From: a virus
Taxonomy: Duplodnaviria > Heunggongvirae > Uroviricota > Caudoviricetes
IMG/VR virus record: IMGVR_UViG_2563366830_000009
DNA: 6,457 bases
Strand: one strand, 5' to 3'
The position numbers were made by a program, and so were the translations under genes. The notes under the pieces are model-generated. The model searched no databases. It saw only the letters and a list, made by a program, of their open reading frames with translations, and was not told the DNA's origin. Shown here in pieces: positions 231 to 6,457 of this stretch; the stretch's first letter is position 1, and each line of letters begins with the position of its first letter.

Positions 231-743
231 CTATGCAGGCTTTTTGGATTTGTACGAATAATCCCACGGATAAACATTTCTACTAAGTGGAGCTGTATTC
301 GTTCGTTCATGAAATAATTTTGTGAAATTCAATACGGAATCCATCCAAACTTTTGCGTTAGCTTTGGTGTGTGCGGGCGGGTCCCAATAAGCTAGTAAGG
401 CTGCATCTCTTATTTCATTGACTGCATATATGAGATATGCGTTACTGGTTGGTTTTGGCCTGTAATTTCCTTGTTCATCAATCAATCCATATGACCACTC
501 ATCCCAACACTGTTCAGTACATGAGTATGAATATGATGCATATTCACCAATATTGACATGAACCTTTCTGAGATGGAAGCCTAATACTTCGTCTGGTCTT
601 TCAAAAAGAGTATCTTTTCCCAGATCAGGATGATGACCATGACGCCAGTGTTGTTTAAAAGCATCTTTTAGCGAAATCAGAAAGTCATCAGTTTTAAACT
701 CACCAGTAGGTATAACCTTCCCGCTATACTCACTCAAAAACAT
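231..743 (-). CDS. YafO-family-like type II toxin (170 aa), putative ribosome-dependent mRNA interferase
   Basis: Good RBS on minus strand (AAGGAAGAGG about 6 nt before ATG at 743). Start overlaps the upstream ORF stop by 14 nt (730-743). Segments LFERPDEVLGFHLRKVHV and TSNAYLIYAVNEIRDAALLAYWDPPAH resemble my recollection of E. coli YafO (FERVAHIHL... and TNDEAHLVYCQG...WLLIAILKPEPH); not search-verified. Confidence 0.5.
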   Translation of the reverse strand: MFLSEYSGKVIPTGEFKTDDFLISLKDAFKQHWRHGHHPDLGKDTLFERPDEVLGFHLRKVHVNIGEYASYSYSCTEQCWDEWSYGLIDEQGNYRPKPTSNAYLIYAVNEIRDAALLAYWDPPAHTKANAKVWMDSVLNFTKLFHERTNTAPLSRNVYPWDYSYKSKKPA

Positions 744-1056
744 CGAATTCCTCTTCCTTCATATGCGTTTCTAATGAGTTAAGCTGGCGGAAAGATATCT
801 CTTTTGATTCTGCAGATGAGAGCTTTTTTATCCGCTTGATATTCTTTGTGATAGGAATAGACATTGTATGCACATCAGCGGATGCTCTTGGCTTTGTGCT
901 GATAAAAATATGGCGCAATGCCGCATTTTCACTATTGAACGAGCCAATAGCTGATTTACGTGCTACAACCTTACCAGTAAAAATACGACTCTTGCTACGC
1001 TTTGCATGAGTTCCGCTTCTTACCGGACCTCTCATCACGAATCCAAGTTTTGTCAT
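730..1056 (-). CDS. Hypothetical basic protein (108 aa), first gene of the module; candidate antitoxin or autoregulator, not YafN/Phd-like
   Basis: Strong RBS (GGAGA, 6-nt spacing) before ATG at 1056. Translationally coupled to the YafO-like ORF. Operator palindrome at 1099-1113 lies about 45 nt upstream. Very basic N-terminal half (GTHAKRSKSRIFTGKVVARKS). Confidence 0.5.
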   Translation of the reverse strand: MTKLGFVMRGPVRSGTHAKRSKSRIFTGKVVARKSAIGSFNSENAALRHIFISTKPRASADVHTMSIPITKNIKRIKKLSSAESKEISFRQLNSLETHMKEEEFDVFE

Positions 1057-3559: not shown

Positions 3560-3835
3560 AGCGATACCTCTACTAGTAAGTTACCTACCACCGCAACGCC
3601 AATTGCTGGTGGTGAACTGGACAAGGTTGGCGTACCGGCCTAGTAGGTACCGGCGCACCTTTCGGTGCCCCTGCCCAGCCCACCATAATTCGGATATGAC
3701 TGTGCTATACGCATAAAAAAACCACGTCTGGCGTGGTATGCGCCTACTAGTAATCCGGGACGCCAATCCCGGCACTGGATTTTGCCAGTGCCCGATTACT
3801 ATGGCACAAGAGGAGTGCGATGTAAATTTACCGAA
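3560..3835 (-). ncRNA. Candidate structured RNA: either an sRNA of about 120 nt (roughly 3835 to 3714) or a long attenuator-type 5' leader of the 168-aa/ORF6N operon
   Basis: Multiple nested stem-loops are visible: an outer stem AGTAATC/GATTACT (3748-3754 with 3794-3800) enclosing hairpins CCGGGA-CGCCAA-TCCCGG and CACTGG-ATTTTG-CCAGTG; GCACC-TTTC-GGTGC; ACCACC...GGTGGT. A promoter with overlapping operator sits upstream and the terminator is at 3714-3737. No ATG-initiated ORF in this minus-strand stretch. Confidence 0.3.
3714..3737 (-). terminator. Intrinsic terminator-like hairpin on the minus strand (ACCACG-CCAGA-CGTGGT followed by U6-7) inside the long region upstream of the 168-aa gene
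   Basis: Plus strand shows aaaaaaACCACGtctggCGTGGT; on the minus strand the 6-bp stem is followed by a T-run. It lies about 155 nt upstream of the 168-aa start codon. Confidence 0.5.
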
Positions 3836-3955: not shown

Positions 3956-4483
3956 ATGGAAGTTTTCTTAATCATCGTCGGCATCGTGATTATTAATTTT
4001 GTTTTTTTATTTATTGCAAAAAAACAAAAAAGTAACGATATGCATGTTTCTACAACTGATGATCTTACCTTTGTAGAGCATGCACTGAATGTATCAGGAT
4101 ATAAACTCACTCCATACGGAGCTGGTGTATCACTCATGTCTTTAAGTAACGGTTTTTCAAAAGAAGAAACATTTTCACATATAGCTTTGATGGCTCTTTC
4201 TCAACACGCCAAAGTCGCAGGTAGTGACGCAATTGAGCTTAGTAAAGTTAGCATTCGTGCGATGTCGATAGCTGAAAACTTAACTAAATTATTCAGGAAA
4301 GGTCTTATTCGATCAGAAATATATAAAAATGATTTGAATGCTATCATGGCTGTCAGCACAATTAATGAAAACCAAGAGGATTGGATTTCCATAGTTCTGG
4401 AAAGCAATAGCACATCTAACAAGGATACTATTGCTTTGCCGATAAGTGCAGAAGCTTCTTTAGAAGCCATAAACAGCCATTGA
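3956..4483 (+). CDS. Hypothetical single-pass membrane protein (175 aa), AT-rich; N-terminal TM helix then a soluble domain
   Basis: RBS GAGGA 8 nt before ATG. The N-terminus MEVFLIIVGIVIINFVFLFIAKKQK is a clear TM segment with a positive patch after it. Only plus-strand gene in the window; convergent with the 618-aa gene. Confidence 0.5.
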   Translation: MEVFLIIVGIVIINFVFLFIAKKQKSNDMHVSTTDDLTFVEHALNVSGYKLTPYGAGVSLMSLSNGFSKEETFSHIALMALSQHAKVAGSDAIELSKVSIRAMSIAENLTKLFRKGLIRSEIYKNDLNAIMAVSTINENQEDWISIVLESNSTSNKDTIALPISAEASLEAINSH

Positions 4484-4504
4484 AAGAACTCCAATAAATA
4501 TTGA

Positions 4505-6361
4505 TTAACGCATCACCGGATCCACCTGGTTTATTAGTGGCGCAATCCAGAACAGGTTATTGCCGGGGATCGTAGTTCGTACATTATGTACAATACGATC
4601 ACCGACATCACCATTCAACACACCAGAGGTCACATCAATGATGCTGTCCGCAAGACTGAATGACGGGCCGAACAAAGAACTCACAAAGCCACGGCTGGCA
4701 TAGCGTGACTGTGTGCCGGTGCCAAATAAAGCCCCCAGCCCAACAGCACCACCAGTAGCCTTTTCAGCCATGTTGTTATATTCCATCAATGGCCCAAGAA
4801 TACCGGATCTATCTATACCCTCAAGCACCAGCTTCTCTGGTGACCAGTCAACATCCTTCCCTTTCGATGCTTCTTTAAGCGCATAGACCAGTGAGCCAAG
4901 AGCAATCTGAAATGCAGTGCCATAATAAAACTGCGCAGTTCCTTCCTGTAACCCACCAAGTAGCGCACGGTTGTATGAAGCCGTTGTGAATGATTTAAAC
5001 TGAAATATCGTTCGCCCCCATGACGTACTCGCCCATAAAGGTGTGTCACCAATACCGGGGGTGATGATAGTGTTATTAACGTCTTTCAGAACCGCTGACT
5101 GGAATACTCCGGCAACGTACTGATCGTCCCATTTATCAAAGTTACCAATGTGCCATCCATCAATTACCTCACCATGTTTCTCGAACTCACTGCGAATACG
5201 CGCAGCCATATTGTCGTTGATACCGAGTTTTGCCAGGCGGCGTGCAGGAAATGCACCGGACAAAATACCGTCTGAAATAACCATTCCGTTCATGGATTTG
5301 TTTATGTCATTAAAGCGATCCATGAGTGTCAGCTTGCCGAAGGCATCAGTAATTCGCTCCATTCCGGCTTCGACTGCTGTTGTCCTGGAAGAGCTGTCAA
5401 CAAGATCACCAATTGCACGAGAGCGTGAATGCAGTACAGTTTCCAGTCCGATACCCATCTTCAACATCTCTTCTTTGCTGGCCTTAAATGCCGGTGATTG
5501 GGATATCTGAGAAGCATAGCCTTTCATGGTGTTACGGAAACCATTAACCATAACCCCTCTGGCCAGATCTGGAATAGCTGATACTGTCATTCCACCGAGT
5601 TTGGTCGTGAAGTTCACATCCCGCAGAAAAGCGCCAGCACGAACAAAAAACGAAGACGGATCATCAGGCATCCCATATGTACCAACAAGACGATCGCGTA
5701 ATGCTGTTATGTCTCTGAGATCATTTGCTCTTGATTTTGAAAGTCTGGACTGTTCTTTCCGTAATTCCTTTTCGTACTTTCGCATTAATGAATCGAGTTT
5801 ACCCTGAGGAACAACTTCACCATTGCTCTCATAACGTGCTTTCAGATTTGCCACACTTTCGTCATATTTCGCCTTTATTTTTTCAGGCACTTCCCGTAAC
5901 AGACTGTCATATTCGTCCTCAATTAATTGCAGACGCTCAGTCATAGTTCGTTTGCCAAATGTTCTCGTCAACTCAATTTCTGCTGCCGCTTCACGGATAT
6001 GACGTTGCAGCACGTAATTCACATCACTTTCAAGATAATCCCTGATAAGACTATCAGGAACATTTAATGTTCTTTCTTTCGTACTACCTGCGGCTTTTAC
6101 AGAAAATACGCTGACAAAATCCTGTGGAACCTTAGCACCAGTAATTTTATTAATTACGATATCTGCTGCAATTTCAGCATCCTCAGGAACCAGTGTTTTA
6201 TTTCCTCTCGACCACCAGTCAACCAAAATACGTCGAAATTTATCGCGTTCACTGATTATTTTTCCAACTTTATATATGCGTGGGAAATAGCTTGCCTGGC
6301 CTAATGCTTTCAGTTCTTCATCTGGCGGCAATAAACCAAGCTTTTGCATTTCAACTTTCAC
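4505..6361 (-). CDS. Large hypothetical protein (618 aa as tracked), charged/coiled-coil-like middle and Gly-rich hydrophobic C-terminal segment; possibly a phage virion or injection/tape-measure-like protein; 5' end abuts an IS element
   Basis: Long uninterrupted ORF. The tracked start at 6361 is GTG; the first ATG is at 6349-6347, with weak SD for both. The reading frame stays open upstream into the IS end at 6378 and to the window edge. No Walker A or HExxH motif seen. The family guess is weak. Confidence 0.6.
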   Translation of the reverse strand: MKVEMQKLGLLPPDEELKALGQASYFPRIYKVGKIISERDKFRRILVDWWSRGNKTLVPEDAEIAADIVINKITGAKVPQDFVSVFSVKAAGSTKERTLNVPDSLIRDYLESDVNYVLQRHIREAAAEIELTRTFGKRTMTERLQLIEDEYDSLLREVPEKIKAKYDESVANLKARYESNGEVVPQGKLDSLMRKYEKELRKEQSRLSKSRANDLRDITALRDRLVGTYGMPDDPSSFFVRAGAFLRDVNFTTKLGGMTVSAIPDLARGVMVNGFRNTMKGYASQISQSPAFKASKEEMLKMGIGLETVLHSRSRAIGDLVDSSSRTTAVEAGMERITDAFGKLTLMDRFNDINKSMNGMVISDGILSGAFPARRLAKLGINDNMAARIRSEFEKHGEVIDGWHIGNFDKWDDQYVAGVFQSAVLKDVNNTIITPGIGDTPLWASTSWGRTIFQFKSFTTASYNRALLGGLQEGTAQFYYGTAFQIALGSLVYALKEASKGKDVDWSPEKLVLEGIDRSGILGPLMEYNNMAEKATGGAVGLGALFGTGTQSRYASRGFVSSLFGPSFSLADSIIDVTSGVLNGDVGDRIVHNVRTTIPGNNLFWIAPLINQVDPVMR

Positions 6362-6377
6362 CCGATTTAATACAGTT

Positions 6378-6457
6378 TGAACCGCCCCGGGAATCCTGGA
6401 GACTAAACTTCCTGAGAAAGAGGTAAACAGGATGACTAAAAATACTCGTTTTTCCCC
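6378..6457 (+). mobile_element. Left end of an IS3-family insertion sequence (IS629/IS1203-like): terminal inverted repeat starting TGAACCGCCCCGGG plus the first codons of orfA (MTKNTRFS from ATG 6432)
   Basis: The sequence TGAACCGCCCCGGGAATCCTGGAGACTAAACTTCCTGAGAAAGAGGTAAACAGGATGACTAAAAATACTCG matches my memory of the IS629-type left end and OrfA N-terminus (MTKNTRFSPEVRQRA...). The element continues beyond the window. Confidence 0.65.

Follow-up and report, generated by a model that had tools for sequence, protein, structure and literature searches.

A gp16-like gene remnant beside an IS3-family element in a TL-2011b-like prophage of Escherichia coli MS 196-1

In phage T7, the gp13–gp16 core module closes with its largest gene, which encodes gp16, or internal virion protein D (PDB 7EYB, 7K5C and 6YT5). 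The closest full-length relatives of the gene studied here are AEW24591.1 of Escherichia phage TL-2011b (JQ011317), annotated as "hypothetical protein," and its E. coli prophage counterparts WP_160371709.1 and WP_042035211.1; AEW24591.1 is 98% identical to the protein of the SCU-387 prophage over the full 1,004 aa. TL-2011b itself has been termed Uetakevirus (PMC11522302), while the NCBI taxonomy leaves it unclassified.

The loss of DNA next to insertion sequences (ISs) is an ordinary path of prophage decay, and the protein family, the IS family, and the process described below are all well known. Ooka et al. 2009 and Kusumoto et al. 2011 reportedly described small deletions linked to IS629 and an IS-excision enhancer. 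Like the EHEC cases in which IS629 is associated with deletions in prophages or with their inactivation, our locus has an IS3-family element in the late region and has lost the adjacent prophage DNA. It differs from them in its setting: the host strain came from a human colon, the prophage tailspike carries an endosialidase annotation, and no O157 Stx prophage is involved. The insertion of IS629 within a prophage gene has itself been documented (PMC7430833).

The remnant and its parent gene

We analyzed a window of 6,457 nt, the whole stretch of DNA under study, and found its positions 4400–6457 to be 100% identical in BLAST to the chromosome of E. coli MS 196-1 (NZ_CP146681.1). MS 196-1 was isolated from the human colon. 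In reverse complement, the whole window corresponds to positions 12001–18457 of L001, a 26-kb context locus of this strain. PGAP annotates L001 with the terminase, portal, protease, major capsid, and cement-protein genes of a prophage and, farther along, with an antirepressor/moron region, the tailspike, and lysis genes; the prophage type is TL-2011b-like and podovirus-type. Four features of the window concern us here:

4505–6377, minus strand: 3' remnant of 1,873 nt, containing codons 382–1004 and the stop of a T7 gp16-type internal virion/ejection protein pseudogene (PHROG match, PGAP, and alignment to SCU-387)
4505–6361, minus strand: program-made ORF of 618 aa with a GTG start, lying inside the remnant
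6377–6378, no strand: deletion junction between native base 6377 and IS base 6378 (alignment to SCU-387)
6378–6457, plus strand: last 80 bp of an IS3-family element, IS629/IS1203-like (ends, length, inverted repeats, OrfA/OrfB, and PGAP)

Given the evidence below, we are highly confident that the 618-aa ORF is the 3' 62% of a late gene of ∼1,004 codons, left behind by an IS-associated deletion of 7,613 bp in a TL-2011b-like prophage. Intact homologues in BCE049, SCU-387, and phage TL-2011b are 1,004–1,006 aa long, and the ORF corresponds to codons 387–1004 of the 3,015-nt parent gene, with 99% identity to residues 387–1004 of the SCU-387 protein. The first-pass annotation had considered a 5' truncation, which the homologues bear out, but it had placed the IS 17 bp upstream of the gene. 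The IS instead sits inside the gene: the two candidate starts are internal codons, GTG 6361 being V387 of the parent and ATG 6349 being M391 (where the 1,004-aa protein reads MQKLGLLPP). We found no homologue that starts at the same Met with native DNA upstream. While the genes for AEW24591.1, WP_160371709.1, and WP_042035211.1 are full length, the window copy is missing codons 1–380 and most of codon 381. The status of the remnant as a truncated pseudogene is already on record, as PGAP (NZ_CP146681.1) marks it as an incomplete pseudogene without its N-terminus and flags the gene across the IS as lacking the C-terminus.

To assign the protein to a family, we used the Pfam, NCBIfam, and PHROGs profile sets, of which PHROGs alone provided the assignment; neither the 618-aa ORF nor the intact 1,004-aa protein had a match in Pfam or NCBIfam. 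The ORF aligned to positions 591–1225 of the 1235 in phrog_342 (E = 3.6e-130), labeled "internal virion protein with endolysin domain," and the intact homologue aligned to positions 203–1225 (E = 1.2e-208). T7 gp16 is a member of this family (positions 4–1227; E = 0), and gp42 of the SP6-like phage LL11 aligned to positions 206–1227 (E = 4e-248). Against phrog_16310, the ORF aligned to the back part only (positions 804–1410 of 1411), which indicates that it is a C-terminal fragment. The guess made from the sequence, that the product resembles virion-associated proteins, thus holds and gains a family name, and the Gly-rich C-terminus noted at the same time is indeed present.

Pairwise similarities were lower. 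In BLASTP, the intact protein matched gp16-type proteins of a Ralstonia phage (3e-14) and of LL11 (2e-12); the match to T7 gp16 itself was marginal (E = 0.013) and consisted of one 28-residue motif, SWGRTIFQFKSFT, at T7 residues 1100–1127, a conserved QFKSFT motif region common to the two proteins. A phmmer search against PDB sequences gave no match with the 1,004-aa protein or with the gp16-type bridge proteins LL11 gp42 and RsoP1IDN gp33. The intact protein had no SLT match and begins only at position ∼203 of phrog_342; it has no T7-type N-terminal lytic transglycosylase domain. As LL11 gp42 also starts near position 206, this domain is not universal within phrog_342.

The neighboring genes support the same assignment. 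We read the intact module at three loci, L002, L003 (SCU-387), and L007, and the order of genes in TL-2011b and its E. coli relatives is as follows:

201 aa, intact relatives: gp11-like adaptor (phrog_394, tail)
823 aa, intact relatives: gp12-like nozzle (phrog_376, tail)
154 aa, intact relatives: gp13-like core protein (phrog_308, the same PHROG as T7 gp13)
188 aa, intact relatives: gp14-like core protein (Pfam T7_gp14)
905 aa, intact relatives: protein at the gp15 position, with an SLT domain
1,004 aa, intact relatives: protein at the gp16 position, encoded by the last gene of the module (phrog_342)

A T7-like tail/core module thus lies ahead of the ∼1,004-aa gene, which argues for the parent being the internal virion protein at the gp16 position. 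It is the PHROG profile and this gene order that suggest the link to T7. Together, they point to the parent protein being the largest internal virion (core/ejection) protein, of the T7 gp16 family and in the SP6-like form without the N-terminal transglycosylase. As a protein of this type, it would be carried in the capsid core and, on ejection, form the trans-envelope channel. Like T7 gp16, it falls in phrog_342, and its gene closes the core module and is the largest there. In contrast to T7, the SLT domain is located in the preceding 905-aa protein and not at the N-terminus of the gp16-type protein, and the parent phage is temperate and outside Autographiviridae. As a by-product, the analysis gives a family name to a protein whose annotation is simply "hypothetical": in TL-2011b-like prophages, the proteins of ∼1,004 aa can be designated T7 gp16-type internal virion proteins whose transglycosylase is found on the preceding gene.

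The IS element and the 7.6-kb deletion

The full-length element is 1,310 bp long and occupies positions 10771–12080 of L001. The first-pass annotation had placed an IS3-family end at position 6378, and alignment confirmed the boundary between 6378 and 6377. The part within the window, 6378–6457, begins with the left inverted repeat (IRL; from 6378 onward, TGAACCGCCCCGGGAATCCTGGAG...), continues through the leader, and ends 26 nt into orfA, which starts at the plus-strand ATG at 6432 (MTKNTRFSP...). The end adjoining the remnant is therefore the transposase-proximal one, and the transposase reads toward the window end and away from the remnant. The terminal inverted repeats are imperfect, with TGAACCGCCCCGGG... 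at both ends and agreement at 32 of the first 45 positions, and the element ends in 5'-TG...CA-3', as in the IS3 family. OrfA matches HTH_Tnp_1 (6e-13) and OrfB matches rve (DDE; 4.8e-28) as well as HTH_21; the two genes are in overlapping frames, with the overlap at L001 11700–11703. PGAP annotates an IS3 family transposase with a programmed frameshift (the –1 type of the IS3 family) and an AL1L pseudoknot.

In length, TG...CA ends with TGAACCGCCCCGGG repeats, HTH_Tnp_1-type OrfA, rve-type OrfB, and programmed frameshift, the element agrees with the IS629/IS1203/IS3411 group, and its inverted repeats probably match those of IS629. Its transposase-distal end shares 93.9% identity with copies labeled IS1203 by PGAP. 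The MS 196-1 copy itself is given no element name by PGAP. MS 196-1 contains ∼20 copies of this IS (21–23 matching places), and two copies of the same IS in UTME-14 are 99.6–99.7% identical.

We defined both junctions by comparison with SCU-387. On the left side, BLAST pairs L001 10419–10770 with L003 4036–4387, a stretch that covers the gp11-like gene up to its nucleotide 352. On the right side, it pairs L001 12072–13949 with L003 11992–13869, the true homology starting from L001 12081, which equals L003 12001. The 9-nt extension of the BLAST match into the IS (query 72–80) is due to chance, as the native GGCGATGCG is merely similar to the IS end GGCGGTTCA; the junction, reading ...GGCGATGCG / AACTGTATT in SCU-387 and ...GGGGCGGTTCA / AACTGTATT in the window, is unambiguous. 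In the parent gene of 1,004 codons, base 6377 corresponds to nucleotide 1143, at the third position of codon 381, and the right junction thus falls after nucleotide 1,142 of 3,015, that is, after 380 codons and 2 nt. The IS stands in place of L003 4388–12000, or 7,613 bp. The DNA lost contains the 3' part of the gp11-like gene, the gp12-like, gp13-like, and gp14-like genes, the 905-aa SLT gene, and the gp16-like gene up to its nucleotide 1,142. No observation spoke against either the truncation or the deletion.

A plain insertion of an IS3-family element would be flanked by a target-site duplication of 3–4 bp, for which a search at the other IS end had been proposed. No such duplication was found: the IS is flanked by CAG on one side and AAC on the other, and these sites are 7.6 kb apart in intact prophages. 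The missing duplication, in which the copy again departs from the IS629/IS1203/IS3411 group, is the signature of the deletion, and what had been taken for a plain insertion is instead a loss of 7.6 kb. For comparison, a simple insertion of the same IS into the same gene is seen in UTME-14 and shows a clean 4-bp duplication, ATGT.

Two routes could have led to the deletion. Two directly oriented IS copies might have inserted at both sites and then recombined; alternatively, the IS itself might have promoted deletion of the adjoining DNA. Both routes would give the same product, and the flanks fit either; the order of events is inferred.

The MS 196-1 prophage is defective by more than this event. 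In addition to the loss of the adaptor, nozzle, and core/ejection genes, its holin gene is split by an IS2-like element, there with a target-site duplication, TCGGC. Tails and ejectosomes are beyond what this prophage can build.

Expression of the remnant

In intact prophages, the start of the ∼1,004-aa gene and the stop of the gene before it overlap (L003 10859). This arrangement indicates that the gene lacks its own promoter, and its translation is probably coupled to that of the upstream gene. In the window, the 618-aa frame is open from GTG 6361 back through the IS terminus, as had been noted from the sequence, and we found the in-frame stop 9 nt past the window edge. Between that stop and GTG 6361, there is no in-frame ATG, GTG, or TTG and thus none inside the IS end. 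The earlier remark that neither start has a convincing Shine–Dalgarno sequence was also correct: a good one is absent at both GTG 6361 and ATG 6349, the sole candidate being a weak GGGTGA 8 nt before ATG 6349. The remnant appears, from its sequence, to be without a promoter, native start, or good ribosome-binding site.

The possibility had been raised that the insertion replaced the promoter of the gene or that an outward promoter of the IS drives it. The outward –35 element of the IS3 family sits in the right inverted repeat (IRR), not in the IRL, as in IS911, IS2, and IS3. If the same applies to the MS 196-1 element, an outward –35 would be expected only at the end away from the remnant. The end adjoining the remnant is the IRL, with the transposase diverging, and in the 700 bases around the junction (L001 11700–12400) we detected no sigma-70-like and no terminator-like sites; the idea of promoter replacement or an outward IS promoter is therefore not supported. 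Most likely, the remnant is untranslated or yields an inert fragment. It may nevertheless be transcribed from the late operon upon induction, by read-through across the IS. Transcripts downstream of stx2::IS629 have been detected after mitomycin C, showing that IS629 does not fully block transcription (PMC7430833).

We considered whether an outward IS promoter or late-operon read-through could bring the C-terminal fragment to expression, and whether it could then have a function of its own, such as interfering with the ejection machinery of related superinfecting phages. The undamaged frame of the remnant, the weak GGTGA 8 nt ahead of ATG 6349, and the incomplete block by IS629 to downstream transcription in the induced Stx2 prophage (PMC7430833) are all compatible with this, but the search around the junction found no promoter-like site, and the orientation of the IS places the IRL, and not the IRR, next to the remnant. 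Furthermore, the junction occurs in one strain only and so gives no sign of selection. A translated fragment would find no virion to join in a prophage that lacks adaptor, nozzle, and core genes and whose holin gene is interrupted. In a PADLOC scan of the window proteins, neither the 618-aa remnant nor its 175-aa neighbor matched a defense model; the only matches were weak ones to PDC-S05, on the ORF6N antirepressor. Taken together, we consider an expressed fragment with a function of its own highly improbable. A narrower version, in which the C-terminal 618–623 residues are translated via induction read-through and act alone, for example as a dominant-negative poison of the ejectosome/core assembly of related superinfecting phages, is more improbable still. 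Beyond annotation, the locus carries little weight, the ORF being neither a 618-aa gene of an unassigned family nor a case of IS-driven expression.

Distribution among genomes and alternative origins

We recorded the occurrence of the lost and the retained parts among complete E. coli genomes. The lost 5' 1,142 nt was found in exactly 45 of them, all listed, and at least 80% of the 7.6-kb interval was likewise covered in 45 genomes; MS 196-1 is in neither set. The 3' part was found in 46 genomes, the one extra being MS 196-1. When searched as 150 nt of IS and 150 nt of flank, each of the two junctions was present in 1 of 5,426 genomes. The event is specific to MS 196-1, and the genome collection contains no intermediate state of the deletion. 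Apparent insertions at the same site in other strains, with matches starting 26 nt before the IS end, were explained by a chance match of AGGAAAGTT in unrelated DNA beside an IS1203 copy.

These counts also bear on the origin of the junction. The ∼20 copies of the IS in MS 196-1 are able to support rearrangements, and an IS-mediated inversion or translocation would have left the missing 5' part and its neighbors elsewhere in the genome, beside another IS copy. However, NZ_CP146681.1 is absent from the 45 records with the 5' 1,142 nt, which refutes this explanation at the sensitivity of megablast, and no site in MS 196-1 matched the 7.6-kb interval at a coverage of 80% or more; we give such a rearrangement next to no credence. 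Equally negligible is a simple IS insertion into intergenic DNA before an intact 618-aa gene, affecting only its promoter: the presence of a possible GTG or ATG start codon 17–29 nt from the IS end could suggest it, but every homologue extends 386 codons farther upstream, the 16 bases between the IS and GTG 6361 are coding sequence of the parent gene, and there is no target-site duplication, the other IS flank being 7.6 kb away in intact prophages.

Under the preferred reading of a 3' remnant left by the deletion, the differences from the intact gene provide an indication of age. Between the remnant and SCU-387, we counted 17 nucleotide differences, with 11 synonymous and 4 nonsynonymous codon changes, and found no frameshift or premature stop in the remnant relative to SCU-387. 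Sequence decay of the remnant thus appears not to have begun, and the undamaged frame and the few differences from SCU-387 fit a recent date for the event.

Insertion sequences in related prophages

Prophages of the MS 196-1 type are struck repeatedly by insertion sequences. The 1,310-bp IS3-family element that adjoins the gp16-like remnant in MS 196-1 has inserted independently into the gp16-like gene of UTME-14 (positions 9924-11233 of its prophage locus, L004) and of UTME-10, with a duplication of 4 bp (ATGT). Further strains carry IS3-family or ISEc8 elements at other places in the tail/core module. A second element lies elsewhere in the 26-kb MS 196-1 prophage locus (L001):

L001 23658-24988, outside the window: IS2-like insertion sequence splitting the putative holin gene

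This element is 97% identical to a copy in UTME-14 that PGAP names IS2, and its target-site duplication is a clean 5 bp (TCGGC). It is a simple insertion, unlike the event at the gp16-like gene, which was a deletion.

Structural genes that differ among relatives

The tailspike of MS 196-1 (L001 20001-23120) and that of BCE049 are annotated as endosialidases, whereas SCU-387, otherwise a close relative, has a different "tail fiber domain" protein as its tailspike (18823-21285 of its locus, L003). The difference is a swap of the receptor-binding module inside one prophage type. The MS 196-1 prophage is also without the gp10 "capsid staple" gene (Pfam Gp10-like; about 324 bp), which in SCU-387, BCE049 and phage TL-2011b lies between a 111-aa gene and the gp11-like gene (L001 10411-10419 versus L003 3711-4036). 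A hairpin followed by a T-run (L001 10380-10400) is found in its place, and the Bbp16-type cement gene is retained.

Accessory genes and a regulatory-gene fragment within the window

Two features lie near the gp16-like remnant:

3956-4483, plus strand: 175-aa gene, convergent with the remnant
about 3605-3701 (L001 14757-14853): Rha-family phage regulatory protein fragment, frameshifted and with both ends missing (PGAP annotation)

The 175-aa gene, with the last ejection-protein gene on one side and the antirepressor region on the other, has a low GC content of 33-37%, compared with 47-49% in the neighboring DNA. Its product has a hydrophobic helix at the N-terminus (MEVFLIIVGIVIINFVFLFIA) and matches phrog_21690 (unknown function), while Pfam and PADLOC searches gave no matches. 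The gene is identical in BCE049, and an unrelated 187-aa gene takes its place in SCU-387 and TL-2011b. In P22 the corresponding position is occupied by sieA, and the site may serve as a variable slot for exclusion genes or morons. The Rha-family fragment, too, points to decay of the antirepressor region or to mosaic joints there.

At the start of the window, a 227-nt direct repeat (1-227 and 1176-1402; 99% identity between copies) encloses two genes:

231-743, minus strand: YafO-like toxin gene
730-1056, minus strand: 108-aa gene, overlapping the toxin gene

Both repeat copies contain a small ORF whose N-terminus resembles a signal peptide; in TL-2011b and UTME-14 it is annotated as "transmembrane anchored protein." SCU-387 has only one repeat copy and lacks the toxin/108-aa cassette. 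The arrangement resembles a moron cassette that came in through a duplication or has one at its flanks.
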